A stretch of DNA of 64,000 nt from contig JAACZQ010000005.1 in assembly GCA_009996675.1 (NCBI GenBank), forward strand, positions 7,948 through 71,947, in the 5' to 3' direction. Below the pieces are notes generated by a model. It worked only from the letters and a program-made list of their open reading frames with translations. It had not been told where the DNA came from and searched no databases. The number at the start of each line of letters is the position of its first letter. The first letter of the stretch is position 1. The translations under genes were made by a program, and so were the position numbers. This document shows positions 9,872 through 27,422 of this stretch, in pieces. This DNA is from Chitinophagaceae bacterium. GTDB lineage: Bacteria > Bacteroidota > Bacteroidia > Chitinophagales > Chitinophagaceae.

Positions 9872-9945
9872 GGGCCTATAGCTCAGTTGGTTAGAGCACC
9901 TGACTCATAATCAGGGGGTCCCAGGATCATGCCCTGGTGGGCCCA
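9872..9945 (+). tRNA. tRNA with CAT anticodon, most likely tRNA-Ile2 (lysidine)
   Basis: Cloverleaf: acceptor GGGCCTA/TGGGCCC, anticodon arm CCTGA-CTCATAA-TCAGG, T-arm CCAGG-ATCATGC-CCTGG. G1-C72 excludes fMet; C4-G69/C5-G68 match TilS determinants. TATTTTTG -7 promoter at 9844; CCA not encoded. Confidence 0.88.
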
Positions 9946-9946
9946 C
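9904..9946 (+). repeat. attL core (43-bp direct repeat)
   Basis: CTCATAATCAGGGGGTCCCAGGATCATGCCCTGGTGGGCCCAC, identical to 27380-27422. Confidence 0.95.
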
Positions 9947-9957
9947 CCTTTACCAGT

Positions 9958-9990
9958 AAGGCTTTCATCGATTTTGATGAAAGCCTTTTT
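9958..9990 (+). terminator. Element-supplied terminator after the tRNA
   Basis: AAGGCTTTCATC-gatttt-GATGAAAGCCTT followed by a T run. Confidence 0.75.
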
Positions 9991-9997
9991 TGTTGCC

Positions 9998-10021
9998 TGT
10001 GCAAACAATTTGCAAACAAAA
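9998..10021 (+). repeat. Putative integrase arm-type sites (left)
   Basis: TGTGCAAACAATTTGCAAACAAAA (two TGCAAACAA units), identical to 27230-27253. Confidence 0.65.
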
Positions 10022-10160
10022 CCGCTATAAGGGCTTTTCAATACTATATGAGGCTGTGATGGTAACATTGATGTATCTAAGTTAAGATTAGTCAGCGATA
10101 ACCTGAAATCCCAACAAAAAAGCCCATCATTCTGATGGGCTGCGGTAAAACTGTAAATTT

Positions 10161-10487
10161 CTAATTTCGTGGTGCATAGTAAATAATGCAAACACCCAAT
10201 AGTGCTATCAGCGCCCCGATTATGTCATATTTGTCGGGAGTGTACTTGTCAAATTTCATTGCCCACAACAACGACATCACGATAAAGATTCCGCCATAGG
10301 TAGCATATACTCTTGCAAAACTGGACGTTTGCAAAGTCGCTACAACGCCGTAGAGTGCAAGTATAACAGCTCCTGCAATTCCATACCAAAACGGCTTAGC
10401 TTCTTTGAGCCAAAGCCACATTAGGTAACCACCACCGATCTCACAGAGGCCGGCAAGGATAAATATTGGCAGGCTCTTTAAAAACAT
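10161..10487 (-). CDS. ynfA: YnfA (UPF0060) small multidrug-resistance-like membrane protein
   Basis: [13 protein letters not shown] and [11 protein letters not shown] motifs; four TMs; 108 aa. Confidence 0.9.
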
Positions 10488-11104
10488 TACTTGACGGCTT
10501 TTCTTCTAACCGTGCAGCCTATAGCTTTGGTTGAATTAACTAATGGCTTGCTATTACTGCGAAGTGCGTTGATAGCATTTTCAACATAGAGCGTTCGTTC
10601 CGGGTTGTTATTTTGTTGATCATTGTCGATAGATCCGGTGTATTCAATCACGTTACCTGTTGCTGTTTTTGAAACAATAAAAATATGAGGCGTATTCTTT
10701 GCGCCGTATTTGTTAGTGATAACCTGGCCAGCATCATACAGGTAAGGAAAGGAATATTTTTTAGCTTTCGCAAGTTCTTTCATAGCATCAAAGTTGTCGC
10801 CTTGTGATACTTCGGGATCATTTGGGTTGATGGCAATTACCGGATAACCAAGTGGTGCAAATTTTTTATCCAGTTCCATGATTCTTGTCTCGTAGGCTTT
10901 TGCAACCGGGCAGGTGTTGCAGGTAAATACAACGATAAAGCCTTTTGCGTTTGGATAGTTTGCAAAAGACACCTCTTTTCCGTCTACATTTTTGAGCTTA
11001 AAGTCCGGTGCGGAAGTACCAGGAGTAAGCGTATTAATCTGTGCGTTGGCTGAAAATCCTACAAAGGCCAGTAAAATGAAGATGTATTTTTTCATATTGG
11101 TCAT
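10487..11104 (-). CDS. Exported AhpC/TSA thioredoxin-family protein
   Basis: Signal peptide, APDFKL, FTCNTCP Cxx[10 protein letters not shown]-terminal AIGC. Confidence 0.88.
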
Positions 11105-11571
11105 TTAAAATTTTGTAATTCTTTTTCGAGTGCAAGGTAGGAAAACTCCGATTCGACAAATTTTCGCTTCTTTCCTTTAACAAACAGGGTGGCGGGTATG
11201 GTGCCTGACCAATTTTTATCGATCCTGTCTATGTATTTTTGCTGATCCGGTTCGTTCAACACGAATACTTCACTTTTGAGTTGCTTTTTTTTGACAAACG
11301 GTATGACTTTGATTTTTCTGTCAGAGATAAAGTCAACACTTACGAGCAATACCTTGACTTTTTCAGATAGCCCATGTTCTTTATTAAATTTCTCAAAGCT
11401 GGGTATTTCTTTTACGCATGGAGCACACCAAGTTGCCCAAAAGTTGATAATGTATACAGTATCCCTGCCAGACTGTAATCGCTTTTCAAGTTGATCCAAT
11501 GACAGCAGCGATTGGCTTTTGGCAAAAGAAGCAGTAAATGTGAGTATGATTAAAATACTAAGTTGCCTCAT
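11101..11571 (-). CDS. TlpA-like thiol-disulfide oxidoreductase
   Basis: INFWATWCAPCVKEIP motif; cis-Pro loop GTIPATL. Confidence 0.9.
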   Translation of the reverse strand: MRQLSILIILTFTASFAKSQSLLSLDQLEKRLQSGRDTVYIINFWATWCAPCVKEIPSFEKFNKEHGLSEKVKVLLVSVDFISDRKIKVIPFVKKKQLKSEVFVLNEPDQQKYIDRIDKNWSGTIPATLFVKGKKRKFVESEFSYLALEKELQNFK

Positions 11572-11573
11572 AG

Positions 11574-12005
11574 TTACATTTCTAATTCTGTTTTGATAAA
11601 CTCTTTTACGCCCTTCGCACCGGTGATATCCAGCGATATCTTATCATCGTTGGTTACAGCCATCGTAAAATTAAAGAAGCCGCAACAGGTTCGTTCAGAT
11701 TTTATAAAAGCGGCAACAGTTTCCAGGATTTCATCGGTTCCATCAAAAGAATAGCGGTAACCGTTAGGTAGTTCCATCTTGCCTTTTACTTGTTTTTTGA
11801 TAACGGCAATAACTTCTGCTTTTCTTTTCTGTAATTCAGGGGTGGTCAGCTTACAGCTAAATGATTGCGTATTTAGAGTATCGTTTGTTTCGTGGTTGGT
11901 TGAGTCATTCATTGCAATTGTTTTTGAATCGGGTTGCTTTGATGTTGAACCACAGCATCCGGTAAGGCAGTAGCCAACGATAAGTAAATAAAGGAATTTC
12001 ATCAT
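11574..12005 (-). CDS. Cys-containing hypothetical lipoprotein of the type often found beside MerR regulators
   Basis: Lipobox-like LTGC; FSCKLTTPELQKRK...NGYRYSF...ERTCCGFFNF motif. Confidence 0.7.
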   Translation of the reverse strand: MMKFLYLLIVGYCLTGCCGSTSKQPDSKTIAMNDSTNHETNDTLNTQSFSCKLTTPELQKRKAEVIAVIKKQVKGKMELPNGYRYSFDGTDEILETVAAFIKSERTCCGFFNFTMAVTNDDKISLDITGAKGVKEFIKTELEM

Positions 12006-12023
12006 TTCAATGTTTTTGTAAAA

Positions 12024-12053
12024 GTAAACCGTGGAGTATAGTCAATGGTTTAC
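12024..12053. promoter_or_regulatory. Putative MerR-type operator / divergent promoter
   Basis: GTAAACCGT-GGAGTATAGTCA-ATGGTTTAC (8/9 dyad); the core resembles the ZntR operator GGAGTCGACTCC; TACCTTTG -7 box at 12051. Confidence 0.6.
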
Positions 12054-12074
12054 CTTTGAGGCCAAATTTTTCTT

Positions 12075-12476
12075 ATGCTGATCGGGGAATTGTCAAACAG
12101 AAGCGGATTGAGCCGAGATACCATTCGCTTTTATGAAAAAGAAGGTTACATCAAAGTTGGCCGACGGGAACGAAGGGTTAATAATTACAAAGAGTATTCT
12201 GAAGCGACTTTAAAACGTTTGCTCCTTTTCAATAAAATCAAATCGTATGGTTTTACTTTAAATGAATCTGCCGAGATCATTTCACTTCTCGAGTCAAACC
12301 TTGGCACCTGTAATCAGATCAGCAAAGCTGCAGATAGAAAAATCGAAGTTATTGATAAAAAAATACAGGAATTACTGACGCTTAAAACGCTATTACGTAC
12401 AACCATAAATAATTGCAAGAGCGGTTGTTGCTCGCCGAGTTATGATGAAAATTGTCCTTTATTTGTTTTGGATTAG
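12075..12476 (+). CDS. MerR-family metal-responsive regulator
   Basis: MLIGELSNRSGLSRDTIRFYEKEG HTH; a Cys at the start of the dimer helix (GTC) and C-terminal CKSGCC...CP cluster, as in MerR/ZntR. Confidence 0.92.
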   Translation: MLIGELSNRSGLSRDTIRFYEKEGYIKVGRRERRVNNYKEYSEATLKRLLLFNKIKSYGFTLNESAEIISLLESNLGTCNQISKAADRKIEVIDKKIQELLTLKTLLRTTINNCKSGCCSPSYDENCPLFVLD

Positions 12477-12523
12477 TATGCAAACTTACAATCCAGTTAA
12501 ACGAGTCTCGCTAATGTCCTTCT

Positions 12524-13228
12524 TCACAGCCCTAAACGCCTGCCTCGTGATCGCTTAACTGTGTTTGCTTTTGCTTTCTTAATGATGAGCTTGTTCTCCG
12601 GTTTAAATATTTTCTGAGGATTTATCGTTGCTTCTCTTAACCTTTTCACAATTGATGACCAGTCAATACTCTTGTTTAGCAAACCCAGTTGTTGAGTGAG
12701 CCTAACATCGTTATGATAGATCAACGCTTTACCCGCAGTTACCATACTAACACCTGGATACTTCTGCTCGTAACTGGCTAATAATTCTGATAATGATCTG
12801 TGTTCAAGAAGCACATAGATGTCAACGAAATCTTTAAACCGGGAACCGTCCTGAACGATCGCGTTAAATTTCATGGCAGCGATATCCTCCATTGATGCCA
12901 TTCTTATTCCTTCTATTTCTACTGTGTTGCCTATCCACGGATAACGGTGCGCTATGCAGTCGACTTTAATGTCCTCGATAAAACAATTAATAGTGTTATT
13001 GTCGATTTCTAAGTTGTCTACTTTATACTTTTTTGAAAGCTCTTCCCCGGTCTTTTCAGCGTCAAATGAAAACTCTGTAAAAAGATCTATATCAACCGAT
13101 ATTCTATGACCGATCATTAACGCCAATGCAGTTCCACCGACCAATTTAAAATCTTTCAAATATTCATCTGCCATTAACCTATGAATCAAATCCAGAGTTG
13201 ACTCCTCGACTGTTTCCTTATGTAGCAC
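12524..13228 (-). CDS. AbiEii/AbiGii nucleotidyltransferase toxin
   Basis: LVGGTALALMIGHRISVDIDLF and KDFVDIY motifs; GTG start overlapping the antitoxin; basic C-terminal extension. Confidence 0.88.
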   Translation of the reverse strand: MLHKETVEESTLDLIHRLMADEYLKDFKLVGGTALALMIGHRISVDIDLFTEFSFDAEKTGEELSKKYKVDNLEIDNNTINCFIEDIKVDCIAHRYPWIGNTVEIEGIRMASMEDIAAMKFNAIVQDGSRFKDFVDIYVLLEHRSLSELLASYEQKYPGVSMVTAGKALIYHNDVRLTQQLGLLNKSIDWSSIVKRLREATINPQKIFKPENKLIIKKAKANTVKRSRGRRLGL

Positions 13229-13704
13229 TTTAATTCTTCTGGTTTAAGTTTAAAAAAATCGCATACTTTTTTTATAGCCCGGTCGGTTAAATAAGTGGTT
13301 CTGTTTTTAAGTGTGTTGATCACTTTCTTCTCACCGTAAAACCTTATCATTTCTTTCCATTCCTCCGGTGAACCTCGTTCAACAACCCGTTCAATTACCG
13401 TTTCCGAATCCTTCTGCCAATCCATCTCATCGTACTTAAATTCCCAGAATAATCGCTTTGGCAAATCAGGCTTACCTGGTCTTTCCGGTTTAGTAATAAC
13501 CTGCTTGCGTTCTACACGGATATCATCGGTTTCAAAAGGCATTTTTTTCTTCGAGAGATAATTATTTAGTGTGTCATACGAATACATCGGGTTTGCAAGG
13601 CTGAAATTCTTCAGGTTGGAATACACCTCAACAGACTTGTTTGCATTGTTTTTCCAGTGAACTAATACAACCCTTCTAGAATCAAAATTTGCGCCCTGTT
13701 TCAT
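13186..13704 (-). CDS. DUF6922-type putative antitoxin with extra N-terminal domain
   Basis: LFWEFKYDEMDWQKDSETVIERVVERGSPEEW motif; directly upstream of and overlapping AbiEii; likely start MKQGAN at 13704. Confidence 0.75.
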   Translation of the reverse strand: MKQGANFDSRRVVLVHWKNNANKSVEVYSNLKNFSLANPMYSYDTLNNYLSKKKMPFETDDIRVERKQVITKPERPGKPDLPKRLFWEFKYDEMDWQKDSETVIERVVERGSPEEWKEMIRFYGEKKVINTLKNRTTYLTDRAIKKVCDFFKLKPEELKCYIRKQSRSQLWI

Positions 13705-13796
13705 TACATAAATATACGAAAATGTGACCAATATTGTCGCATATTAGTCTGTAATTTGCACCCTTTTTTCAGAAAATATCGGTCAAGTCAGGAAAA

Positions 13797-14342
13797 TCAA
13801 GGGCTACGAACTGCTGAGCCTGACCGGTCTTTCGTACGCCTTATTCCATTTTCTTTTTCACCCGCGAAATGGATAACGGCGGAATCGAATAAGGCCGGAT
13901 TCACGAGGTAAATACTATCCACCTGCCTGCAAAAGCGGGATAGCGACGGACTGGAATTCCTCTTCAAATACCGATACTTTACAGAGTCAGTTTCGTATTC
14001 GGTTGAAATCCGGAATGTATATCCCCATCCCCAAGCCATCGCCATAAAAACGAAGAATAATAAAACGAAAATCCAGGTGCTTTTTCTGCGCAAATAATGT
14101 GTCTTCGATTGCGGTATTTGCGCCGGAGGAATTGATGATTTTAGCTCTGTAAACAGTTGCCTGATTTGAACCCAATCTGCATCCGACAACCGGTTTGTAA
14201 CCGGTTGAGGATTGCCCGGCTTATTCGCCAGCAGCTTCATCAATTCCAGATGACGTTTATTGTCATCATTTGAAGTCGTTTGCTGCAGCAAGCCCATCTC
14301 ATCGAGCTTTTCAACTATAATTTGTAATAACAACTCAGACAT
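13797..14342 (-). CDS. Single-TM mobilization-region hypothetical protein
   Basis: Follows the relaxase; one TM (WIFVLLFFVFMAMAWGWGY) followed by VKYRYLK, as seen downstream of Bacteroidota mob genes. Confidence 0.6.
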   Translation of the reverse strand: MSELLLQIIVEKLDEMGLLQQTTSNDDNKRHLELMKLLANKPGNPQPVTNRLSDADWVQIRQLFTELKSSIPPAQIPQSKTHYLRRKSTWIFVLLFFVFMAMAWGWGYTFRISTEYETDSVKYRYLKRNSSPSLSRFCRQVDSIYLVNPALFDSAVIHFAGEKENGIRRTKDRSGSAVRSP

Positions 14343-14357
14343 GGTTCAATATTTAAT

Positions 14358-15266
14358 TTAAAGACCTAAAGATTTTCTACGTTTCTTTTTGATTAACTCA
14401 TTGGGAACAAAATCCTGTGTGAATTCCGGCTTCATCAGCTCGTACAAGAGCTTAGTTGCTTGACCCAGCTGTTTGTCATGATCCGGTTGTGAAATACCGG
14501 GTTTATGCTGCCGGGTTTTATGCAATGATTGCTGCTGTTTCCGTGCAAACATTTTCTGAAGATTGTTGTACGAAAAGGACCGGTCAATTTCGCTTCCTTT
14601 AAACTTTAATTCATCCTTGCAAAAGCTGATTCCTTGCACCTCGTCTGAGTGTCCTTTATATTTATAAAGTATCGAGATTTGTCGATGGGTAAGTTGTTGC
14701 TTTAGATCCTCCAAATTCTTGCACGCTGGCAGTAAATCATGGATAGCGGCGAAGATTTCATATCGAGCTGCATCTTTACCATGTAAACGTGTCAGATCGG
14801 TTTGACCAAGATGCTTTTCGTTGGCTATTTTCAATCCATACTTTTTGGTCAACTGCTGTGCAATTTTCTTACCGCGCAAACCGATATAATTGTCCCTGAT
14901 TGTTTTTCCATTATTGCTCACCCGGTTGACAACTAAATGCACATGCTGATGTTTCCTGTCATTGTGCTTAACAACAGCAAATTGTGTGTCCGATAGATGA
15001 AGACTTTCGAGATATTCATTGACGGTTATTTTCATAAGGTCAGCAGCTATGTTTTCATCCGGCGGCCAGGATATGATAATATGCAGAACCGGGGACTTTA
15101 AACGCGGATTTTGAGCAGCCTGTGTAGCAAAATCTGCAGCCATTTTTTTGGGGTCATAATCGCGAACGCCAGCACATAGAATTACCTCTGCCTTCTCTTT
15201 ATTTTGAAAAAGGTATTGACATAATCCGGCAAAGGATTTTCCAGGTGGGATAACCTTACTTATCAT
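14358..15266 (-). CDS. Relaxase/mobilization nuclease (MOBP-like)
   Basis: FAGLCQYL catalytic Tyr region, VLHIIISW, and HUH motif KHNDRKHQHVHLVVNRV. Confidence 0.92.
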   Translation of the reverse strand: MISKVIPPGKSFAGLCQYLFQNKEKAEVILCAGVRDYDPKKMAADFATQAAQNPRLKSPVLHIIISWPPDENIAADLMKITVNEYLESLHLSDTQFAVVKHNDRKHQHVHLVVNRVSNNGKTIRDNYIGLRGKKIAQQLTKKYGLKIANEKHLGQTDLTRLHGKDAARYEIFAAIHDLLPACKNLEDLKQQLTHRQISILYKYKGHSDEVQGISFCKDELKFKGSEIDRSFSYNNLQKMFARKQQQSLHKTRQHKPGISQPDHDKQLGQATKLLYELMKPEFTQDFVPNELIKKKRRKSLGL

Positions 15267-15613
15267 CTTCTAAAATGTTCCAAAAGTTTATCGAGATCAA
15301 TTCTGATTTTATCGACTTCAAACACCGCTGAGAGAAGCCGCTCCTTATGAGCCAAACGGGCAATTTGGTTAAGGTTATTTGCCATGCCTACAAGCTTCCG
15401 CATGTTCTCTTTTTCTTCCATAGTAAACCTTGCAATAACAGTTCCGTTTACAGCCATGTTTCTGATATATTCTGTCAGCTTCTGATTGGCCTTGGCGGCT
15501 TTTGCTTTCACAATAAAGTATTCAGCCTTAGTAAATCGGACGCCGGTTGCTGCAGACCGTTTGACAGCTTGTTTAGGCCGTCCTCCTTTACGCACGTTTG
15601 CATCTTTTGCCAT
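15263..15613 (-). CDS. mobC: MobC relaxosome accessory protein
   Basis: KGGRPK...GVRFT ribbon-helix-helix and GMANNLNQIAR motif; overlaps the relaxase start; likely start MAKDAN at 15613. Confidence 0.88.
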   Translation of the reverse strand: MAKDANVRKGGRPKQAVKRSAATGVRFTKAEYFIVKAKAAKANQKLTEYIRNMAVNGTVIARFTMEEKENMRKLVGMANNLNQIARLAHKERLLSAVFEVDKIRIDLDKLLEHFRR

Positions 15614-15644
15614 CACATTTTCTTTTGCGACCAACGGGAGAAAA

Positions 15645-15686
15645 AGCAAGCGGTAGCGTTTTTGTGCTACAAAAACACCGCTTGCT
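15645..15686. other. Putative oriT hairpin
   Basis: AGCAAGCGGT-agc-GTTTTTG-tgcta-CAAAAAC-ACCGCTTGCT directly upstream of mobC. Confidence 0.65.
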
Positions 15687-15697
15687 AAAACAAACTT

Positions 15698-16594
15698 CTA
15701 CATTCCCAACTTCCTTGATTGACTTATTCGATGGGTGTTCTGCTGGCTTACATGCCACTCGTTAAGATCCTTATAATGCTTATATATCCCGCTTTCATCA
15801 ATCACTTTTGCAGGGCTTCTTTTCAGGATTTCTTGAACACATTGCCGACCAGGATTGTCGTTGTCTAAATACAAATGAATCCGATCGTGCTTCTCCTGGA
15901 GTAGCAAACTGCGGGTGAAAAAAGAAAGGGAGTTCAGTACCAGAATGTTTGTTGACTTCGCTTGTTGCAAAGAGTTAAGGCTTCGCCACGTTAGGAAATC
16001 GAAAAACCCTTCAAAAACGGTGATGGTATTTGCGTAGTTATTAAACCAGGTTACATATTTGGGAGCGCTGGCAGCTTTGAAGTGTTTTGAGCGCAGTTCG
16101 TAACCGCCACAATTGTTTTTAAATCCGATTGCCAAAAACCGCTTTCCGGCATTTTCATACAGGATTTGTTTACAGTGATTTTGTGCTACGGATTTTTCAA
16201 TATGCCGGGACGATAAATACTGCAAAAGAAGATTATCCATAATCATTGGATCAATCCGGACAATTTCAATATGGTTGTCATGTTCAGTTGATAGCTGTCC
16301 CGACTCTCGAATAACCGCATTTGGCAGCTCGATCTTTCCTGCTCCAATCTTGTCTAAAGCTTCGGTCAACTCACAACTGAAATATCGCATTGCAAAATCA
16401 ACCAGGTTTCCTCCTTCTCCGGTTCCGTGATCAAACCAGATATTTTTAGCTCGGTTTACTTTGAAGGACGCGGTATTTTCATCACGGGTTGGTGATAGGT
16501 ACCAATAATCGTTTTGGCGGATTTTTTCCGGTCGAAATCCTAATGATGCCAGATAATCCACAAGATCGATTTGATTCGCTTGTTGGCAATTCAT
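15698..16594 (-). CDS. DnaG-like primase (degenerate CHC2 zinc finger + TOPRIM)
   Basis: YLSPTRDENTASFKV...WFDHGTGEGG N-domain; VFEGFFDFL and YLDNDNPG TOPRIM acidic motifs. Confidence 0.88.
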   Translation of the reverse strand: MNCQQANQIDLVDYLASLGFRPEKIRQNDYWYLSPTRDENTASFKVNRAKNIWFDHGTGEGGNLVDFAMRYFSCELTEALDKIGAGKIELPNAVIRESGQLSTEHDNHIEIVRIDPMIMDNLLLQYLSSRHIEKSVAQNHCKQILYENAGKRFLAIGFKNNCGGYELRSKHFKAASAPKYVTWFNNYANTITVFEGFFDFLTWRSLNSLQQAKSTNILVLNSLSFFTRSLLLQEKHDRIHLYLDNDNPGRQCVQEILKRSPAKVIDESGIYKHYKDLNEWHVSQQNTHRISQSRKLGM

Positions 16595-16920
16595 ACGGCA
16601 TCATTTAAAGAATTAACAGGTAATTGCGTTTGCCGGATCACAAGCTCAATGTCGGCGCGGGAAAAATACCGGCGCGACCGGATTTTAAAACTGCGTAGTT
16701 TGTTTTGCCTGATCCAAGCATAAAGAGTAGGCTTGGATACACGGAAAATTTCGCAAACTTCACTTGCTTTTAAAAGTGTCTTTTCCGGCAAGTCATGTAA
16801 GGAATGGGATTCGGTTTGTAAGGTGGCGAGTTTCGCATCTACAACTTCGGATACTACGACCTTAATTTGTTTCCAGAACTCCGAAGGAGCAACGGGGAAT
16901 AGCATTGGGGTTTCCTGCAT
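16591..16920 (-). CDS. HTH_17 excisionase-like protein
   Basis: LLKASEVCEIFRVSKPTLYAWIRQNKL winged HTH; 4-nt overlap with the primase. Confidence 0.82.
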   Translation of the reverse strand: MQETPMLFPVAPSEFWKQIKVVVSEVVDAKLATLQTESHSLHDLPEKTLLKASEVCEIFRVSKPTLYAWIRQNKLRSFKIRSRRYFSRADIELVIRQTQLPVNSLNDAV

Positions 16921-17342
16921 ACATCACGATTTATCATTTTCACAAAAGGGTTAGCCTGGTATATGTAAGTTAAAGTAGGAAGCAGGAGTGATTTCCAAGT
17001 GGATTCCCAAGTATGGGGTATTCGTGATAAACTATACGGATAGAAAATGAGATTTGTGCCAGGTACGGCAAGAGGAGTAAACCAGTTTAGTTTTGTCGTT
17101 TCCATTCTACACTTCATTTCCAATCAATAAATCAAATCGACCTGTAAAGATAAGTTGCTTAAAGAAACAAAAAATGACATGATCAAATTTTGATCATGTG
17201 GTTATTGATTCTATTAACAATTACAGTGAAAATTATTGATAAGTCAACTGGATTAACGGCAATTAAAGTAAAGAGACGGTAAAATAGGGAAAGTATGAAC
17301 CAGTCGAAAAAAGAAAAGGAAACTTAAGATTTAACAAATAAA

Positions 17343-17370
17343 ACCTGCCAGTCAAAGTTAACTGGCAGGT
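17343..17370. terminator. Terminator of the czc/P-type ATPase operon
   Basis: ACCTGCCAGT-caaagtta-ACTGGCAGGT, 15 nt past the ATPase stop. Confidence 0.7.
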
Positions 17371-17385
17371 ATAAATTATTTCTCG

Positions 17386-19878
17386 CTATATCTTCTTATT
17401 CATTTGATACACCAACAAACGTAATGCATTAAAGACAACTACTAACGTCGATCCTTCGTGCGCAATTACAGCTGGGCCAATACTCGCAATACCAAGAATT
17501 GTAAGTGGTATCAATATGGCCACCATTCCAAGACTGATAAACAGATTTTGCCTGATAATCGACTTCGCCTTTCGACTTAGGCCGATTGCGAATGGTAGTA
17601 ACAGGAGCTTGTCGCCCATGAGCGCGATATCAGCAGTTTCTAATGCCACATCGCTACCCGCAGCACCCATAGCAATACCTACCGTACTTTTCGCCATAGC
17701 CGGTGCGTCATTTACGCCATCGCCAACCATCGCAACTTTGCCTTCTTGTCCGGCCAGCTGTTCTATCGCTTCCACTTTTTGTTCGGGCAGTAATCCGCCT
17801 CTTGCTTCCGTTAATCCGATTTCTTTTGCAATTGCATCGCCTACTTTCTGATTGTCGCCGGTAAGCATGATCATTTTTTTGATGCCCGCTTGCTGCAATT
17901 CCTGCAATGCCTGTTTAGCTTCCGGCCTCGGCGTATCCATTATTGCAATGATCCCTACGTAGTCCTTGTTACGCCTGATCACCATAGTTGTGTTTCCAGC
18001 CGCCTCCAACTCACGGACTTTAGCGATCAATTCTTCGGTTGGTTTAGCATCATCGAGGCTTTCAAATAAGGCAAGGTTTCCGGCGAATACTTGATCGTTC
18101 CCTAAAGTCGCCTTAACTCCCTTCCCAAGCACAGCTTGCAGATCCTTTGCTTGGGGAACATTTTGGTCCTTTAATTTTTCCTTACCATCCCGAACTATCG
18201 CTTTCGCGATCGGGTGATCGCTGAGTGATTCTATACCCACAACCATTTTTAAGAGGTCTTCTTCCGAAAGATTATTAAGCGGAACAACCTGCGTAAGCTT
18301 AGGCTTTCCTTCTGTAAGTGTACCGGTCTTATCGAACGCGATCGCTGTGAGTGTACCAAGATCTTCCAGGGGTCTGCCTCCTTTAATAAGAACGCCGCTT
18401 CTTGCCGCACGTGCAACCCCACTTAAAACAGCGCTCGGTGTAGAAATTGCCAGTGCGCAAGGACTTGCTGCTACCAGGACCGCCATAGCCCGGTAAAAAC
18501 TGGCGCTGAATGGCTCATCAATCACCAAATAGGCGAAGCAAAGCAATACAACAAGTATAAGTACAGAAGGAACAAAATATTTCTCCAATTTGTCCGTAAA
18601 CTGCTGCGTTGGTGATTTCTGTGTCTGTGCTTCATTGACAAGTTTTACAAGGCGTGACAAAGTGGAATCTTTTGCTTCCTTGGTTACGCTTATTTCCAAT
18701 AAATCGTTCCCATTAATTGTTCCGGCAAATACGCGATGCTTCGCATCAACTTTATCTGCATTTTCAGATTTGAAATTTCCTGCATCTGGAACTGCTTCTT
18801 TATCTACCGGAATACTTTCGCCGGTAATAGGAGCCTGGTTGACACTGCTTTTACCTGTAACAATAACTCCATCAGCAGAAACTTTGGTATTCGGTTTTAT
18901 TACAATCACATCACCCAATTTCAATTCCTCAATTTTCACTTCTGTTGTTTGTCCATCCTTTTTAAGCAGTGCTGTTTTAGGTGCCAGTTCTGTTAAAGCC
19001 GCAATAGACTTGCGCGCTTTTTCCATTGCATAGTGTTCAAGGGAATGTCCCAGGCTGAACAGGAATAGTAATAACGCACCTTCCATCCAGTTATCTAAAA
19101 CAGCTGCGCCTATTGCCGCAACGAGCATCAAAAAATCGATCTCGAAGCCTCCCTTCATGATTGTTTGAATTGCTTCTTTGGCAGTAAAAAAGCCACCAAA
19201 GAAATAAGCGATCATGTACAGGATTTCAACTGTTATTTCTGAAACATTTGTCAGTTTAGATAATGCAAATCCTAATCCTAAAAACAGACCGCACAGTATG
19301 CTGAAAATTAGCTCAGTGTTTTTACCGAATATTCCACCATGCGAATGCCCTTCTTCTCCTTCTTCCTCACCATGATCATGCTCATGCTTTCCTTCCGGAT
19401 GTGAATGATCATCATGTTTTGGTTTTGCCTGTTTAGTAGGCAGACTTACGCCGGTTTTTTCAATCAACTCTTTTACTTTCTTTTCCGATATCTCTTTAGA
19501 GTCGAATTCTATCAGTACCATTCCGCTTGCTGAAGCAGAAACAGATAGAATTCCTTTGTTATGCTTTAATCCTGCCTCTATCAGTCTGGTTTGCCGTTGA
19601 TGACGAATGCCGTTTACTTCTACCAATAAGTGTTTGTAACGATCGGTAATTTTAGCGCCTGCTTCACGCGCAATCTGCTGTACACGATCCAGGGTGATTA
19701 CGTTTGGATCATAGTGAAAGCACAGTTGCGCTTTTGTGGTGTCTGTTTCAGGAACGATATGTACTTTATCTATTCCCTGTCGTCCTTCCAGTTCTGAGAT
19801 AATGCGGTTCACACAGGCATCTTTTTCATCGGGAACATTGGGAAGTAGTATATCGAGGTCTATTTTAAGTTTTTCCAT
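17386..19878 (-). CDS. P1B-4-type heavy-metal (Zn/Cd/Co) translocating P-type ATPase
   Basis: TGES, SPC, DKTGTLT, SDHP, GDGVNDAP and HEGST motifs; N-terminal ferredoxin-like repeats and a His-rich linker. Confidence 0.93.
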   Translation of the reverse strand: MEKLKIDLDILLPNVPDEKDACVNRIISELEGRQGIDKVHIVPETDTTKAQLCFHYDPNVITLDRVQQIAREAGAKITDRYKHLLVEVNGIRHQRQTRLIEAGLKHNKGILSVSASASGMVLIEFDSKEISEKKVKELIEKTGVSLPTKQAKPKHDDHSHPEGKHEHDHGEEEGEEGHSHGGIFGKNTELIFSILCGLFLGLGFALSKLTNVSEITVEILYMIAYFFGGFFTAKEAIQTIMKGGFEIDFLMLVAAIGAAVLDNWMEGALLLFLFSLGHSLEHYAMEKARKSIAALTELAPKTALLKKDGQTTEVKIEELKLGDVIVIKPNTKVSADGVIVTGKSSVNQAPITGESIPVDKEAVPDAGNFKSENADKVDAKHRVFAGTINGNDLLEISVTKEAKDSTLSRLVKLVNEAQTQKSPTQQFTDKLEKYFVPSVLILVVLLCFAYLVIDEPFSASFYRAMAVLVAASPCALAISTPSAVLSGVARAARSGVLIKGGRPLEDLGTLTAIAFDKTGTLTEGKPKLTQVVPLNNLSEEDLLKMVVGIESLSDHPIAKAIVRDGKEKLKDQNVPQAKDLQAVLGKGVKATLGNDQVFAGNLALFESLDDAKPTEELIAKVRELEAAGNTTMVIRRNKDYVGIIAIMDTPRPEAKQALQELQQAGIKKMIMLTGDNQKVGDAIAKEIGLTEARGGLLPEQKVEAIEQLAGQEGKVAMVGDGVNDAPAMAKSTVGIAMGAAGSDVALETADIALMGDKLLLLPFAIGLSRKAKSIIRQNLFISLGMVAILIPLTILGIASIGPAVIAHEGSTLVVVFNALRLLVYQMNKKI

Positions 19879-19901
19879 GATATATTTTTTAATGGGTTAA
19901 T

Positions 19902-21083
19902 TTATTCTTCTTCTACACTATTAGTCATTTTGGCGAGGATAAAAAACGCGCCTTTAACGACAATCTTGCTCGTAGCTGGCACCGCTTTAAGCGGCGTGAT
20001 CTCGCTATAACCAATATCAGTTGTGCCTTTTGCCACGGGAATCCTTTCAAATTGAACCGTTGCCGCAGAGTCATTGCCTGATCTGCTGCTTTCAATAAAA
20101 ATGTAGTCCCTGCCTTGAAAGCTCACAATCGCATCCACCGGGACAGCATCCATTGTTGCTTTGCCTAAACTTACGCTGGCTGTGATATTCATTCCGTCAA
20201 TCAGCCCGGTTTTGTTGCCTTGTACCATTGCATGAACAGGTATGGTTTTGCTACCTGCTTCAAAGGCGGAACCAATGGAGAAAATACGTGCGTCATATTC
20301 CCGTCCCGGATCGTTGGTGATCGTAAAATGGATCAGCTGGTTTTCCTTCAGTCTTTTCCAATCCTTTTCATATACGAAAAGATCGAGGTGCAACTGACTG
20401 TTATCGACAATCTCCGCTATTGCGTTATTTGCATCCACAAAACTTCCGATTTTAGCAATCACGTTACTGACAACACCACCAATCGGCGCTTTGATCTCTA
20501 AAGTAGTGATCATATTGCCGTTGGTTAAACCCGCAGCATCTACATTCATCAGTTGCAGTTGTTTTTGCAAAGAAGCATGTCTGGTACGCAAGCCTTTTAA
20601 ATCTGCTTCCGCCTGCTGCAGGTTTTTAAGCGCTCCCGCATTGCCGGTATTCAGTTCACGTTGCCGTGCAAATTCAAGTTCTGCCATTTTGATTTTACTA
20701 TCGAGTGTCAGGTATTCTTCCTGCATCTGGATATACTGCGGATTGGCAATGGTCGCAATCGTTTGCCCCTTTCGTACATAGCTACCTGTTTGAACCAGTA
20801 AAGTTTTGACAACACCGGAATACAGTGAATTGACAATAGCCTTATTCTGATTGGGAACATTTAAGACCCCATTGGACCTAAGCGATGCTGTCAGTTGCTT
20901 TTGCTCGATCGTGCCAAACGATACACCGATGGTTTTTAATTGCTTTTCTGTAAGCGTTGTAAATGCCGATGAATCTGCAGATTTATTTTCTTTCTTTTCC
21001 GCTTCTTTTTCAGTCTTTCCCTTGCAGGAAACAAGACTGATAAGGAAGCCCGAAATAATAATTCCTATGGTTATTTTCTTCAT
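19902..21083 (-). CDS. czcB: CzcB-like RND periplasmic adaptor (lipoprotein)
   Basis: Lipobox LVSC, barrel-sandwich hybrid and coiled hairpin; 2 nt downstream of czcA. Confidence 0.88.
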   Translation of the reverse strand: MKKITIGIIISGFLISLVSCKGKTEKEAEKKENKSADSSAFTTLTEKQLKTIGVSFGTIEQKQLTASLRSNGVLNVPNQNKAIVNSLYSGVVKTLLVQTGSYVRKGQTIATIANPQYIQMQEEYLTLDSKIKMAELEFARQRELNTGNAGALKNLQQAEADLKGLRTRHASLQKQLQLMNVDAAGLTNGNMITTLEIKAPIGGVVSNVIAKIGSFVDANNAIAEIVDNSQLHLDLFVYEKDWKRLKENQLIHFTITNDPGREYDARIFSIGSAFEAGSKTIPVHAMVQGNKTGLIDGMNITASVSLGKATMDAVPVDAIVSFQGRDYIFIESSRSGNDSAATVQFERIPVAKGTTDIGYSEITPLKAVPATSKIVVKGAFFILAKMTNSVEEE

Positions 21084-21085
21084 GA

Positions 21086-24000
21086 TTATTGATTTAGATA
21101 GTAGAGGTATTGGATAGCTGAATGGTTATACTGATCGAGATTTTCAAGATAACTTTTGCGGATATCTATCGCTTGTGCAAGGTACTGGCTCAGCGCCGCA
21201 AAACTTATTTCTCCGCTTCGGTAGCTTAACGTGGCTGCTTTAATGATCTCATCTGCCTGTGAAAGACCGGTCGATTGATAGTAATTCAGCATCGTGTTAT
21301 TCTTTGCGATGTCTGCGATTGCTTTTTGTTTCGCGCCTGCGAATTGTTGCGTCTGGTAGGCAAGCGTTTTTTCCTGCACCTGGAATTCGGCCTGTGCAGA
21401 GCGCACTTTACTACGCGATGCTCCCGTGCCGAATAATGGGAAAGCTGCCGTAACAGAAAAACCGGTATAAGGATCACTTATGCCATACAACCTTTGCGAA
21501 AAGAATCTTCCTGAAAACTCCGGTTTGTTTTGATTCTGCTGCACCGAAATATTTGCATCAGCAATATTTACTTTCTGTTGCTGAAGTAATAATTCGGGGT
21601 GCAGGGAAGAATCACTTAATGAAAGTGCTATTCTCGTGAGTGAAGTTTGCAACGGGAGCGAAGGGAAAGGCCGACCGAGTAACATCATCAATTGCTGTTG
21701 CTCCATCACGATCTCGTTTGCCTGTTGGTCAATCAGTGCGCGTGTTTCTTTCATCTTAGCCTCCGCAGCGATCCTGTCAATACCTGCCGTTTCTCCGGTG
21801 CGCTGCTTTACAGCAGACGCATCACTGATTGCCGTGTAGATACTATCGAGCCGTTGAAACAGAGTTCGTCTTTCTACTAGGTACCATAGCTTATAATACG
21901 AATCCCTTACATCTCTTCGGATGATGGCGCTCAGTGTATTTGTATTTAACTCGTAATACTTCGCTTGCTCTGTAAAGTATTTTTTTCTTGCTGCATACAA
22001 ACCCGGCCATGCAATGGATTGTGATACGCCCATTTTCAGGATGCCTTTGTTATCACTTGGACGCAGATCCTCGTTTTCTGCAAATACACCTGTTTTGGGG
22101 ATATCCGCAGCGGTCTTGATGTCAAGTCTTGCGCGGGTGATTTCCGCCTGGTTGACCGCGAACTGCAAATTGTTTTTCATCGCAGTATCGATAGCGGCCT
22201 GCAGGCTGATACGTTCCTGCGATTTTCCGGCCAGCGGCGAAAGGAAAGCCAACGCAACAATCATTGCTATTGGTAAATTCTTCATGGTTTTTCTTTTTAA
22301 CGTGAATAGCAGATACAAACACGGCAGCACGACCAGCGTTAAAAATGTGGCCGACACCAATCCACCAATGACAACGGTCGCAAGCGGCTTTTGCACTTCC
22401 GCACCAGCGCCGGTGGAAAGTGCCATAGGTAAAAATCCGAGCGATGCCACTGTCGCCGTCATAAGTACCGGGCGTAATCTAATGCGCGTCCCCTCCAGAA
22501 CACGGGCAAGTGGATCGTGCATGCCTTCTTTTTGTAACTGGTTGAATGTGCTGATGAGTACAATACCATTCAATACTGCAACGCCGAACAGCGCGATAAA
22601 GCCAACGCCAGCTGAAATACTAAATGGCATTCCACGGAGCATCAATGCGAATACGCCGCCGATAGCACTCATCGGTATTGCGGTGAAGATGAGTGTCGCT
22701 TCCTTGAATGAACGGAAGGTTAGGTACAGCATAAAATAAATGAGCAGTAGCGCCAATGGTACAACGATCATCAGGCGCGATGACGCCTGTTGTAAATTTT
22801 CAAATGTTCCACCGTAGGTATAATAGTATCCTGCAGGCAGGACAGATGCTTTTGAAAGTTTTGCTTCAATATCTTTCACCACACTTTGTACATCGCGGCC
22901 TTTCACGTTAAAACCAATAACTACCCGTCTTTTACCGGCTTCGCGGCTGATCTGCGCCGGACCTACTTTGAAGGCAACGGTTGCAATTTGAGATAGCGGT
23001 ATTTGGTTTCCTTTATTCGTTGCAATAAACAGGCTGCTTACATCATCAATTGATGTTCGGCTTGTGCTATCAAGTCTCACCACTAAATCAAATTTCCGCT
23101 CGTTCTCAAACACAACACCTGCGGCTTCTCCGGCAAAGGCTGTGCTGATCGTCCGGTTTACATCTTCCACGCTGATGCTATAATTAGCCAGACGCGCACG
23201 GTCGTACTGAACGGTGATCTGTGGCAAGCCTGTTGTCTTTTCTACCTGCGGTTCAGAAACACCATTTACATCACTGATAATGGATGCCGTTTTTTGCGCA
23301 AGGCTTGCCAGCGTATCGATATTCTCGCCGAAAATTTTGATCGCTACATCCTGGCGAACACCTGTCATCAACTCGTTAAAACGCATCTGTATCGGTTGAT
23401 TGTACTCAAAGAAAACACCCGGAATAACCGATAATTTTTCCAGCATCCGGTTAGCGAGTTCTTTGTAGTCTTTGGTTGTTGTCCAGTCCTTTTTGTCTTT
23501 GAGCGTAATGACCAGATCACTTGCTTCAGGCGGCATGGGGTCAGTTGGAATTTCTGCACTGCCTGTCCTGCCGACAACACTGATCACTTCAGGAAACTCT
23601 TTGATGATACGCGAAGCCTGCATAGATGTTTCAATACTTTGCGCTAAAGAGGTTCCTTGCGGAAGGATACAATGAAACGCATAATCACCTTCTTCGAGTT
23701 GCGGGATAAATTCTCCACCCATACGACTAAATAAGAAAACACAGAGAGCGACCAGCGCAACTGCTATGCCAACCACCCATACACGGACACGTATTGCGCC
23801 ACGTAACAGCGGTGCGTATAAGCGTTGCAAGAAATCCATCAGTTTGTCCGACCAGGTTCTTTTATGAAGCGATTGTTTCGGTAAAAAGAGCGCACTCATC
23901 ATCGGGATATAGGTCAGTGAAAGTATAAGCGCTCCCAAAATGGCGAAGGCCACTGTTTTTGCCATTGGTGTAAACATCTTTCCCTCGATGCCCTGCAACG

Positions 24001-25393
24001 AAAGAATAGGGAGATATACAATCAGAATAATGATTTGTCCGAAAGCTGCTGAACTCATCATGCGGCTTGAGCTTTCACGGACGGCTGAATCCATTTCACG
24101 CTGCGATAATTTCTCATGATTCGTTCGCTCAGCGAGTAAGTGCAATGTGGCTTCAACAATGATCACGGCGCCATCCACGATCAGTCCGAAATCAATAGCA
24201 CCCAAACTCATCAAATTGGCGCTGACGCCAAACAACCGCATCATACTCAGTGCAAACAATAGCGACAAAGGAATTGCGGATGCAACGATCAACCCCGCAC
24301 GAATATTTCCTAAGAAAACAACGAGAACAAAAATGACAATTAGCGCGCCTTCCACAAGATTCTTTTCTACCGTTCCGATAGCGCGATTCACAAGCCCTGT
24401 CCGGTCAATAAATGGCTCAACCTCTATATCTGCCGGAAGCGATTGTTTGATCGTTTCCATTTTTTTCTTCACGGCTTTAATCACCTCTGCACTGTTCGCA
24501 CCTTTCAGCATCATCACTACGCCACCTACAGCCTCTTTTTCTCCGTTGAATGTTAACGCGCCATACCGTACAGCATTTCCAAACTGTACCTCTGCTACAT
24601 CGCGAATCAAAACAGGTACACCGTTTCCATTATTTTTTACAGAGATGGCACGGATATCATCGAGTGAATTTACCAGCCCGATCCCGCGAATGAAATAAGC
24701 ATTTGGGCGTTTATCGATATAAGCGCCGCCGGTGTTTTGATTGTTCTTTTCAAGGGCTGTAAAAATTTCCTGCATCGTCACGTCCATCGCCTTTAAGCGA
24801 TTTGGGTTGAGAGCGACTTCATATTGTTTTAATAAGCCGCCGTAGCTGTTTACTTCAGCGATACCAGGTGTTCCATATAATTGACGAGCAACGATCCAAT
24901 CCTGCATCGTGCGCAGGTCCATCGCCGAATATTTTGATTCAGCGCCCTTCTTAGGGTGAATGACATATTGATAAATATCACCGAGACCTGTACTTACAGG
25001 AGCAAGTTCAGGCTTACCCATGCCTTTGGGTATTTTTTCCGCTGTTTCCTGCAGCTTCTCGTTGATCAGCTGGCGGGCGAAATAAATATTTACATCGTCT
25101 TTGAAAACAACAGTGATCACAGACAGGCCAAAGCGTGAAATAGAACGCATTTCTTCCAGGTCAGGAAGATTGGCAAGACTTTGTTCGATAGGAAAGGTGA
25201 CAAATTGTTCCACTTCCTGCGAAGCGAGTGTAGGCGAAAGCGTAATCACCTGCACTTGATTATTGGTTATATCAGGAACAGCATCAACGGGTAGGCGGCT
25301 GGCACTCCAAACGCCCCAGACAATCAATGCAAGTGTGAAAACTGCAATGATGATCTTGTTCTTGATGCTGAACTGAATGATCTTATTCAGCAT
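21086..25393 (-). CDS. czcA: CzcA/CusA heavy-metal RND pump fused to a C-terminal TolC-like domain
   Basis: DAVPDITNNQVQV, GAIDFGLIVDGAV and RLRPVLMTA motifs; ~400-aa C-terminal outer-membrane efflux-like extension. Confidence 0.93.
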   Translation of the reverse strand: MLNKIIQFSIKNKIIIAVFTLALIVWGVWSASRLPVDAVPDITNNQVQVITLSPTLASQEVEQFVTFPIEQSLANLPDLEEMRSISRFGLSVITVVFKDDVNIYFARQLINEKLQETAEKIPKGMGKPELAPVSTGLGDIYQYVIHPKKGAESKYSAMDLRTMQDWIVARQLYGTPGIAEVNSYGGLLKQYEVALNPNRLKAMDVTMQEIFTALEKNNQNTGGAYIDKRPNAYFIRGIGLVNSLDDIRAISVKNNGNGVPVLIRDVAEVQFGNAVRYGALTFNGEKEAVGGVVMMLKGANSAEVIKAVKKKMETIKQSLPADIEVEPFIDRTGLVNRAIGTVEKNLVEGALIVIFVLVVFLGNIRAGLIVASAIPLSLLFALSMMRLFGVSANLMSLGAIDFGLIVDGAVIIVEATLHLLAERTNHEKLSQREMDSAVRESSSRMMSSAAFGQIIILIVYLPILSLQGIEGKMFTPMAKTVAFAILGALILSLTYIPMMSALFLPKQSLHKRTWSDKLMDFLQRLYAPLLRGAIRVRVWVVGIAVALVALCVFLFSRMGGEFIPQLEEGDYAFHCILPQGTSLAQSIETSMQASRIIKEFPEVISVVGRTGSAEIPTDPMPPEASDLVITLKDKKDWTTTKDYKELANRMLEKLSVIPGVFFEYNQPIQMRFNELMTGVRQDVAIKIFGENIDTLASLAQKTASIISDVNGVSEPQVEKTTGLPQITVQYDRARLANYSISVEDVNRTISTAFAGEAAGVVFENERKFDLVVRLDSTSRTSIDDVSSLFIATNKGNQIPLSQIATVAFKVGPAQISREAGKRRVVIGFNVKGRDVQSVVKDIEAKLSKASVLPAGYYYTYGGTFENLQQASSRLMIVVPLALLLIYFMLYLTFRSFKEATLIFTAIPMSAIGGVFALMLRGMPFSISAGVGFIALFGVAVLNGIVLISTFNQLQKEGMHDPLARVLEGTRIRLRPVLMTATVASLGFLPMALSTGAGAEVQKPLATVVIGGLVSATFLTLVVLPCLYLLFTLKRKTMKNLPIAMIVALAFLSPLAGKSQERISLQAAIDTAMKNNLQFAVNQAEITRARLDIKTAADIPKTGVFAENEDLRPSDNKGILKMGVSQSIAWPGLYAARKKYFTEQAKYYELNTNTLSAIIRRDVRDSYYKLWYLVERRTLFQRLDSIYTAISDASAVKQRTGETAGIDRIAAEAKMKETRALIDQQANEIVMEQQQLMMLLGRPFPSLPLQTSLTRIALSLSDSSLHPELLLQQQKVNIADANISVQQNQNKPEFSGRFFSQRLYGISDPYTGFSVTAAFPLFGTGASRSKVRSAQAEFQVQEKTLAYQTQQFAGAKQKAIADIAKNNTMLNYYQSTGLSQADEIIKAATLSYRSGEISFAALSQYLAQAIDIRKSYLENLDQYNHSAIQYLYYLNQ

Positions 25394-25472
25394 TTATCCA
25401 AGTTTAATGATAATGGTACACGGGTTTACTTGAGCCTGTTATAGACCCAACACATAGTCAGTAAAGAATGGA

Positions 25473-25799
25473 TTAAGCCCGTGGAGGCTGCCAGATAGTA
25501 CCCTGATAGGAAGAAAGATGAAAATTGTCCTCTGCAGCAACAGGTTTTGCGGGAGGTGTTTCTATTGTTTGTGTTTGAAAGGCGACAGTCTTTGCGGAGA
25601 AATTAAAACCGGCGCAATGATGGCAGTTGAAGAAAGGTGAACAGCTACCGCAGCCATCTTTATCGCCCCCTTGATGGGTATTGGTTTGACAGGCAATTTC
25701 AGATTGTTCGCGGTCTTCCGGGCAATTGTCGAACGCACAACACGGCAACACCGTAAGGAGCATTAAATAAAAAGACAATATCGCTGTCGCAACGCGCAT
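25473..25799 (-). CDS. DUF6660-like Cys/His-rich small protein
   Basis: VLPCCAFDNC...CGSCSPFFNCHHC...IWQPPRA pattern typical upstream of Bacteroidota czcA; TAATTTTG -7 box a few nt before the ATG. Confidence 0.75.
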   Translation of the reverse strand: MRVATAILSFYLMLLTVLPCCAFDNCPEDREQSEIACQTNTHQGGDKDGCGSCSPFFNCHHCAGFNFSAKTVAFQTQTIETPPAKPVAAEDNFHLSSYQGTIWQPPRA

Positions 25800-25881
25800 G
25801 GTGCAAAATTACGTCATTCTTCCAGGTTTATCTATCCGTTTTTTGCTCGGTGGTTGCAAACTGTATATTACTATGATACCC

Positions 25882-27123: not shown

Positions 27124-27170
27124 GGGACCCCCTGATTTTTGGGCATTGATTTATGAATAGAGATGGCTAA

Positions 27171-27253
27171 AATTTGCAAACAAAAACGGCCTAATCTGGT
27201 GGTCTCCCGAGGGGAAACATGGCGAAAAGTGTGCAAACAATTTGCAAACAAAA
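27171..27253 (+). repeat. Putative integrase arm-type sites (right)
   Basis: AATTTGCAAACAAAAAC at 27171 and TGTGCAAACAATTTGCAAACAAAA at 27230-27253. Confidence 0.65.
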
Positions 27254-27379
27254 GTACATTAAGCCGGTTTTCGGCCGGTAAAGATGTAATGCTAAAAAAT
27301 CGCTAAAACCCTTTGCCAGTAAGTGTTTCAGTGAATTTAGGTAACGTTGGGTAAAGTTGAGAAAAGGGCAAAAATGGCC

Positions 27380-27422
27380 CTCATAATCAGGGGGTCCCAG
27401 GATCATGCCCTGGTGGGCCCAC
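27380..27422 (+). repeat. attR core (duplicated tRNA 3' half)
   Basis: Exact 43-bp copy of 9904-9946, starting in the anticodon loop. Confidence 0.95.

Follow-up and report, generated by a model that had tools for sequence, protein, structure and literature searches.

A tRNA(CAU) gene with an inverted T-loop pair

The window, by which we mean the whole stretch of 64,000 nucleotides that was analysed, carries at 9872..9945 of the forward strand a tRNA gene with the anticodon CAU, recognized by both ARAGORN and Rfam and predicted by minimum-energy folding to form a cloverleaf. The gene is 74 nt long, with the 3′ CCA absent from its sequence, and it matches RF00005 with 65.4 bits, against a gathering score of 29, over model positions 1-71, which is the full length, without a single non-standard stem pair in the Rfam alignment. 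Its anticodon CAT lies at 9906..9908 (+), where C34 is the presumed site of lysidine formation, as the gene appears to be of the Ile2 type, a lysidine-dependent decoder of AUA. ARAGORN labels it Met. An intrinsic-terminator-like hairpin followed by a T run (9958..9987, +) is found directly 3′ of the gene, and the window contains a further tRNA gene, an unremarkable tRNA-Phe(GAA) (69.5 bits) whose T-loop is normal, at 52138-52211 on the reverse strand.

The U54-A58 pair is taught as a near-universal pillar of the L-shape of tRNA, and it serves TrmA/TrmFO, TruB, and TrmI as substrate or as recognition site. It has been described as universal save for A54/A58 in eukaryotic initiators and some tRNA-Ala (PMC7912444, PMC7566577). 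In the window tRNA, the T-stem CCAGG/CCTGG (9921-9925 and 9933-9937, +) encloses the T-loop ATCATGC (9926..9932, +), in which position 54 is A (9926) and position 58 is U (9930), so that the canonical reverse-Hoogsteen pair is absent and its two partners are exchanged, a state that we call flipped. Position 60 is C (9932), and the rest of the loop consists of U55, C56, A57, and G59. The other contacts of the corner are normal, namely, G18, G19, G53-C61, U55, C56, and a purine at 57, and all of the other 28 tRNAs found in the assembly have U54/A58. The loop fits the flipped class as we define it in this analysis (A54 and U58, with a base other than U at position 60), a rule drawn from 133 flipped and 658 normal phage tRNAs together with 38 distinct cellular CAU tRNAs.

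The same gene is the attachment site of an integrative mobilizable element. A direct repeat of 43 bp running from position 32 of the anticodon loop to one base beyond A73 forms attL (9904..9946, +), and an identical copy, attR (27380..27422, +), represents the displaced 3′ half of the tRNA with the same flipped loop at 27402-27408. The 26-nt segment made up of the T-arm and the 3′ strand of the acceptor is present at two places in the window, 9920 and 27396, and at no other, compared with 0 occurrences expected from 100 shuffles. Phage attP copies of the 43-bp repeat were absent from the named phage collection. The element between the repeats (9947..27379, 17.5 kb, annotated from its ORFs and Pfam matches) encodes a relaxase, a primase-like gene, AbiEii, a P-type ATPase and an RND/MFP efflux system for metal efflux, and a tyrosine integrase (25882-27123, −); the terminator-like hairpin lies inside it. 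An earlier note on this DNA had proposed a reciprocal swap of positions 54 and 58, an identical loop in the attR copy, and, from the latter, that a base-call error was improbable. ARAGORN, Rfam, and the direct reading of the letters agree with the first of these points, and the coordinates above with the second.

Probable identity as tRNA-Ile2

The assembly (G000) comprises 3.25 Mb in 166 contigs, is 95% complete, and contains 29 tRNAs, four of which have a CAU anticodon: two initiators, one Met-type elongator, and the window tRNA. The last has an elongator body, with a paired G1-C72 and an anticodon stem CCUGA/UCAGG that does not have the three closing G-C pairs. In E. coli, the acceptor recognized by TilS carries C4-G69, C5-G68, and A73, as opposed to G2-C71, C3-G70, U4-A69, and A5-U68 in the Met type. 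The Met-type elongator of the assembly has an acceptor beginning with GGCG, with G2-C71 and C3-G70, and U32, while the acceptor GGGCCUA of the window tRNA provides C4-G69 and C5-G68, accompanied by C32, A73, and U12-A23. Bacterial Ile determinants include A73, C4-G69, and U12-A23, and Met determinants include G2-C71 and C3-G70 (PMC9976931). Both C4-G69 and C5-G68 are also present in the tRNA-Ile(GAU) of the genus.

A complete, one-contig congener (G017) has the same three kinds of CAU tRNA, with normal T-loops in all of its other tRNAs that were recovered. Neither the 29 tRNAs of G000 nor the 39 recovered in G017 include one with a UAU anticodon; both lists may be partial, and in G017, 150 of the 171 candidates were scored. 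TilS is encoded in G000 (169 bits, above the cut-off), and AUA is used 9.9 times per 1000 codons, making up 15% of Ile codons; thus, an AUA decoder is needed, and the window tRNA is the only candidate found. By BLAST against E. coli, the best match of the window tRNA is tRNA-Met (positions 8-58), so that the assignment to Ile2 rests on the acceptor stem, orthology, and elimination. In a relative from the same order with a normal loop (L024), the corresponding tRNA aligns from end to end with E. coli tRNA-Ile(CAU) at 81%. Furthermore, phiKZ-like phages carry a tRNA that combines the acceptor stem of the window tRNA with an anticodon arm like that of E. coli ileX, and some of their records annotate it as tRNA-Ile. 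An Ile2-type tRNA(CAU) with the acceptor stem of the window tRNA and a normal TTCAAGT loop was observed in the megaphage Lak-A1 of Prevotella (L322, 494830-494904).

Judging from these features of the gene, the window tRNA is very probably tRNA-Ile2 and probably essential. The suggestion of the earlier note that it decodes AUA has most probably proved right, as it is the only such gene in an assembly that is 95% complete and in the complete congener; the copies were counted, and no second, canonical tRNA-Ile2 was seen in either genome.

Spread of the flipped pair within the genus

The 74 nt of the window gene recur unchanged (100% identity) in 14 further species-level genomes of the genus, which rules out a base-call error, and four more genomes differ only by the compensated change of A51-U63 to U51-A63. 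A census of all 281 genomes of the genus, with a pattern allowing either base at positions 54 and 58, found an Ile2-type 3′ half in 211 of them; of the 174 good genomes, 146 have it. In the 150 matches listed, ATCATGC stands on the T-stems CCAGG, CCTGG, GTAGG, ACAGG, and CTAGG, one loop reads ATCATTC, and half-flipped loops of either kind are absent. In a second census, covering the 178 genomes of the genus that are at least 90% complete, the normal loop occurs in 13, nine of which have only the normal form, and A54/A58 loops occur in none. Given these nine, the flip would be present in about 137 of the 146 informative good genomes.

An alignment of 28 distinct Ile2-type sequences (A1) has 96.6% of its cells paired, with changes on both sides in four of the five T-stem pairs and an invariant G19-C56. 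Its columns 54 and 58 read A-U in 18 sequences, U-A in 10, and mixed in none, although it should be kept in mind that the flipped members were partly found by a pattern requiring both bases. In one variant of the genus with the T-stem CCUGG (L019), the predicted minimum-energy fold is not a cloverleaf; the 5′ strand of the T-stem pairs instead with the 3′ strand of the anticodon stem, an alternative that the CCAGG stem of the window avoids.

That the gene is a pseudogene or an assembly artefact is suggested by the unusual loop alone, and we find this hardly credible, since the identical sequence recurs in 14 other species, the T-stem changes are compensated, and the gene is the sole Ile2 candidate in a genome that encodes TilS. 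With the attR copy added, we rejected sequencing error and pseudogene as explanations. The swap itself is thus real, although it is by no means peculiar to this genome: it is the majority state of a genus of 281 species. The earlier note had itself remarked that a documented clade-wide occurrence would reduce the novelty, and this is what the census found, with other genera and families, Patescibacteria, and phage tRNAs joining the genus; as an oddity of one genome, the flip is accordingly less novel.

Attachment-site copies and mixed alleles

Bacteroidota are known to harbour integrative mobilizable elements that insert into the 3′ end of tRNA genes (NBU type). Insertions into the Ile2-type tRNA gene are frequent in the genus, and partial copies of its 3′ half are common. 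For instance, genome G079 has a full gene followed by three half-copies, that is, four copies in a row with three different T-stems. In G015, G048, and G054, the full gene has a normal loop and flipped half-copies are found on other contigs, and G105 has two full genes, one normal and one flipped. Such combinations of normal full genes and flipped copies imply that both alleles circulate on attachment-site copies. The two full-length genes of G105 lie 2.2 kb apart (L183, G105:C25:38300-42800), and the one with the normal TTCGAAC loop has a C51-U63 mismatch, which gives its T-arm the look of a hybrid. In another genome (L192, G023:C33), a second, tandem tRNA copy about 150 nt upstream of the intact gene retains its 5′ half, its T-arm and acceptor 3′ strand having been swapped for unrelated sequence; this is likely a dead copy left by a rearrangement at the attachment site.

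These observations raise the possibility that mobile elements drive the distribution of the flip, with attachment-site copies acting as unexpressed reservoirs in which the double change could arise and from which the T-arm of the host could be overwritten. The frequency of partial 3′-half copies in the genus and the mixed alleles of G079, G015, G048, G054, and G105 are what such a process would leave behind. Nevertheless, half-flipped A54/A58 copies number 0 in 178 genomes, and in the window attL equals attR. In G015, G048, and G054, contig breaks separate attL from attR and the flanks are duplicated, which hides the T-arm that the element brought in and the direction of replacement. We regard a driving role for mobile elements as rather unlikely, and it would in any case be compatible with the explanation that we prefer below.

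Distribution outside the genus

A scan across all species, aimed at CAU tRNAs whose loop is flipped and with the pattern set to leave out the genus's own anticodon stem, returned, among the matches listed, mainly Alistipes, Tidjanibacter, and other Rikenellaceae, including Alistipes timonensis DSM 25383, together with a few other Bacteroidales and several Patescibacteria. Other genera of the window's family carry the flip with either A57 or G57. In Patescibacteria, the strict pattern matched 0 of 300 other genomes, so that the flip is rare there in this form. Besides the flipped loop, most of the Alistipes and Rikenellaceae tRNA-Ile2 (L031-L150) have a T-stem mismatch, U50-U64 or C50-U64, and G27-A43 as the uppermost pair of the anticodon stem.

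A second scan was blind to the anticodon, requiring the common AGCUCAG..GGU D-arm and then G53 with the flipped loop, and thus covered one type of D-arm. In a sample of 401 genomes of the phylum it gave 5 hits, all of which are CAU tRNAs, and in 301 genomes of the order it gave 17, consisting of 15 tRNAs, again all CAU, and 2 chance hits that are not tRNAs; a reversed control pattern gave 0 hits in both of these Bacteroidota samples. One genome of the phylum sample, listed as same class but different order, carries an Alistipes-like tRNA.

Which of the CAU tRNAs is flipped varies. It is the Ile2 type in the genus, its family, and Alistipes, and the Met type in genomes from other families (G593, G620, G1196, G1229, and G1110). 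In G593, the Met type is flipped and the Ile2 type is normal, and in G1145, the flipped CAU tRNA is of a separate type and the Ile2 type is normal. In every genome where both elongator CAU tRNAs are visible, which amounts to a handful, only one of them is flipped. One could thus imagine that the flip marks one of the two elongators, Met and pre-lysidine Ile2, whose anticodons are identical, for some enzyme. One flipped tRNA per genome, of the Ile2 type in the genus and A. timonensis and of the Met type in G593, would fit such a mark, as would the fact that every flipped tRNA in both Bacteroidota samples is a CAU tRNA. We nevertheless consider it quite improbable, as the observation comes from a handful of genomes, two normal loops suffice in most Bacteroidota, and the scan pattern spans one D-arm type only. 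In the published TilS and MetRS complexes, neither enzyme is known to touch the T-loop, which also counts against a mark of this kind.

Another T-loop in the assembly departs from the consensus at the same corner. The tRNA-Arg(ACG) gene at G000:C2:80528-80602, outside the window, and its counterpart in G017 (L172) have the T-loop TTTGAAT, with U56 for C56, and the D-loop ..CUGAAUA.., with A19 instead of G19, so that in both genomes the G19-C56 pair appears from the gene sequences to be replaced by A19-U56.

Phage tRNAs and position 60

On viral contigs, the same anticodon-blind pattern finds flipped loops in tRNAs of many kinds, with at least 38 for Asn and at least 21 with a CAU anticodon, and others for Lys, His, Thr, Pro, Gly, Phe, Ile, Tyr, and Ala. 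Among the matches listed, they lie mostly inside tRNA clusters. The presence of the flip in so many phage isoacceptors indicates that it is structurally tolerated in many tRNA bodies.

These tRNAs also reveal a constraint on a third position. We tallied position 60 in the non-redundant tRNAs of viral loci L202-L320, which were chosen for the flipped pattern. Among the 658 normal U54/A58 loops, 538 have U60 (82%), 94 have C60, 22 have A60, and 4 have G60. The 133 flipped A54/U58 loops, by contrast, include a single U60, with 67 C60, 55 A60, and 10 G60. The difference in U60 between the loop types has a Fisher p of about 1e-77, a value that ignores kinship. The 38 distinct flipped cellular CAU tRNAs all have C60 or A60, and A54 phage tRNAs on these loci almost never have U at position 60. 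The other T-loops on L202-L320 are G54/G58 (11), A54/A58 (5), and G54/A58 (4), and A54/U58 is thus the commonest natural alternative among the loops of these phage loci. In the window's order, normal Ile2-type loops often have C60 already, and this may have eased the way to the flip.

The abundance of the flip in phages leads to the idea that it is adaptive and hides the corner from something that reads T-loops, be it a toxin or defence nuclease or a phage or host enzyme, as the earlier note had contemplated when it wrote that the tRNA might evade T-loop-recognising nucleases. Such a benefit would explain both the recurrence and the phage abundance, given that Asn, CAU, Lys, His, Thr, Pro, Gly, and other tRNAs are flipped in phages and that flipped tRNAs turn up again in several families of Bacteroidota as well as in Patescibacteria. 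Yet, species with normal and flipped loops coexist within the genus, a normal loop is present in the Ile2-type tRNA of Lak megaphage, for which Prevotella is the recorded host, and no nuclease or partner was identified in this analysis. Moreover, the viral loci were selected for the pattern, so the counts give no frequency among phage tRNAs. The phage abundance may keep nuclease evasion alive as an idea, short of demonstrating it, and on balance we think an adaptive origin unlikely.

Modification enzymes and DNA motifs

The earlier note also stated that the tRNA would lack m5U54. This is true and at the same time empty, as TrmA and TrmFO went undetected in the genome, in its congener, and in the normal-loop relatives that were tested. 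In G000, the search found no TrmFO, the only match being the 630-aa MnmG, and no TrmA, since the sole member of the U5-methyltransferase family is RlmD (334 bits), which scores 70 bits as TrmA, well below the cut-off of 335. Neither enzyme rises above its cut-off in G017, A. timonensis, G593, or G620, and the same holds for TrmFO in four relatives from the order and one member of the genus that have normal loops. As no TrmA or TrmFO was found in the lineage, the point about m5U54 is moot. TruB, on the other hand, is encoded in G000.

Two candidate causes were rejected on this basis and on that of genome composition. Loss of the enzymes that make m5U54 does not explain the flip, since they are missing with flipped and with normal loops, and their absence is at most permissive. 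A role at the DNA level for the GATC that the flip creates was also discarded, given that GATC is found in the genome at an observed/expected ratio of 0.99. CTAG, for its part, is strongly avoided in the G000 genome, with an observed/expected ratio of 0.20.

Proposed explanation

Taken together, a large group of Bacteroidota species has the flip as its normal state, and the flip is not an error but most likely a working alternative corner of the tRNA. The explanation that we favour, and that we think probable, is that the flipped tRNA-Ile2 is the single working AUA decoder, that it belongs to an alternative T-loop class, and that the change is compensated and nearly neutral. TilS would convert C34 to lysidine, IleRS would charge the tRNA, and AUA would then be read. 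At the corner, A54-U58 would close the loop atop G53-C61 in place of U54-A58, with a base other than U at position 60, and the contacts G18-U55 and G19-C56 and the purine at 57 would be retained.

The flip would have arisen as a compensated double substitution, fixed in the ancestor of most of the genus, and would then have been held by purifying selection, because a return needs two changes. It was probably within easy reach for two reasons, namely, that Ile2-type loops of the order often have C60 already and that the lineage has no recognisable TrmA or TrmFO needing U54. As the same gene is an attachment site, attachment-site copies would carry and shuffle T-arm variants within the genus.

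Some observations sit uneasily with this explanation. The normal pair and its swapped trans Watson-Crick/Hoogsteen counterpart are not strictly isosteric, which counts against it. Furthermore, a purely neutral account leaves unexplained both the restriction of the flip to CAU tRNAs in the order (15/15) and phylum (5/5) samples and its richness in phage tRNAs. The CAU restriction in Bacteroidota and the abundance in phages thus leave a minor, though appreciable, room for a selected function. In its boldest form, such a function would mean that A54-U58 with a base other than U at position 60 is a second general architecture of the corner, favoured by selection in phage tRNAs and in certain host tRNAs for its ability to escape or redirect a reader of the T-loop. 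We offer this as a speculative and rather doubtful extension of the argument. If true, the host tRNAs concerned would be those with a CAU anticodon in Bacteroidota, among them the essential AUA decoder of major gut genera, and the reader escaped or redirected would be a nuclease, a defence system, or a modification enzyme.

The finding matters in several respects. The tRNA with the inverted pair is single-copy and probably essential in a very large genus. Alistipes, which is common in the human gut and has type strains in culture, shows the inverted pair as well. The rule for positions 54, 58, and 60 holds in phage tRNAs as well, and the flipped tRNA-Ile2 is one member of a recurrent alternative T-loop class, offering tRNA structural biology a natural and testable alternative corner. 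Flipped tRNAs are also a class in which gene finders and modification maps may mislead, as illustrated by the Met label that ARAGORN gives to the window gene. If the CAU restriction or the phage enrichment reflects selection, a factor that reads T-loops and is so far unknown would be implied.

Comparison with known systems

The element of the window resembles the NBU type in its tyrosine integrase, relaxase, and primase and in the direct repeat of the 3′ part of the tRNA from the anticodon loop onwards, although the likeness concerns the gene as an attachment site and not its T-loop.

As for the tRNA itself, the closest known counterparts are the tRNA-Ile2 genes ileX and ileY of E. coli, in which TilS converts C34 of the CAU anticodon to lysidine. 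The window tRNA shares with them the anticodon, the paired 1-72, A73, C4-G69 and C5-G68, A37, A38, and a TilS gene in the same genome. It differs from them in having A54-U58 where the E. coli gene has U54-A58 and U-A at 29-41, where the E. coli gene has C-G.

Regarding the loop, the E. coli suppressor tRNA variants of Zagryadskaya, Doyon and Steinberg (2003, NAR 31:3946), which were obtained by selection, reportedly showed that the 54-58 pair is the key constraint on the T-loop and that a few other combinations are functional, with A54-U58 said not to be among the functional clones. The likeness to our loci is that alternative 54-58 combinations can work; natural G54/G58 and G54/A58 loops are present on the phage loci. 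In the full-text literature, outside of which older subscription papers fall, we found no published description of A54-U58.

Finally, the eukaryotic initiator tRNA-Met and the tRNA-Ala with the anticodon AGC, both with A54/A58, are likewise natural and conserved departures with A54 (PMC7566577, PMC7912444), and the unusual pairs treated in the first of these papers are stated there to be unseen in bacterial tRNAs. Position 60 is a purine in the eukaryotic tRNAs known to have A54 (PMC7566577), and this absence of a pyrimidine parallels the avoidance of U60 in flipped loops. The difference is that the eukaryotic tRNAs keep A58 and thus form a longer purine-purine pair, whereas the flipped bacterial and phage elongators swap both partners.
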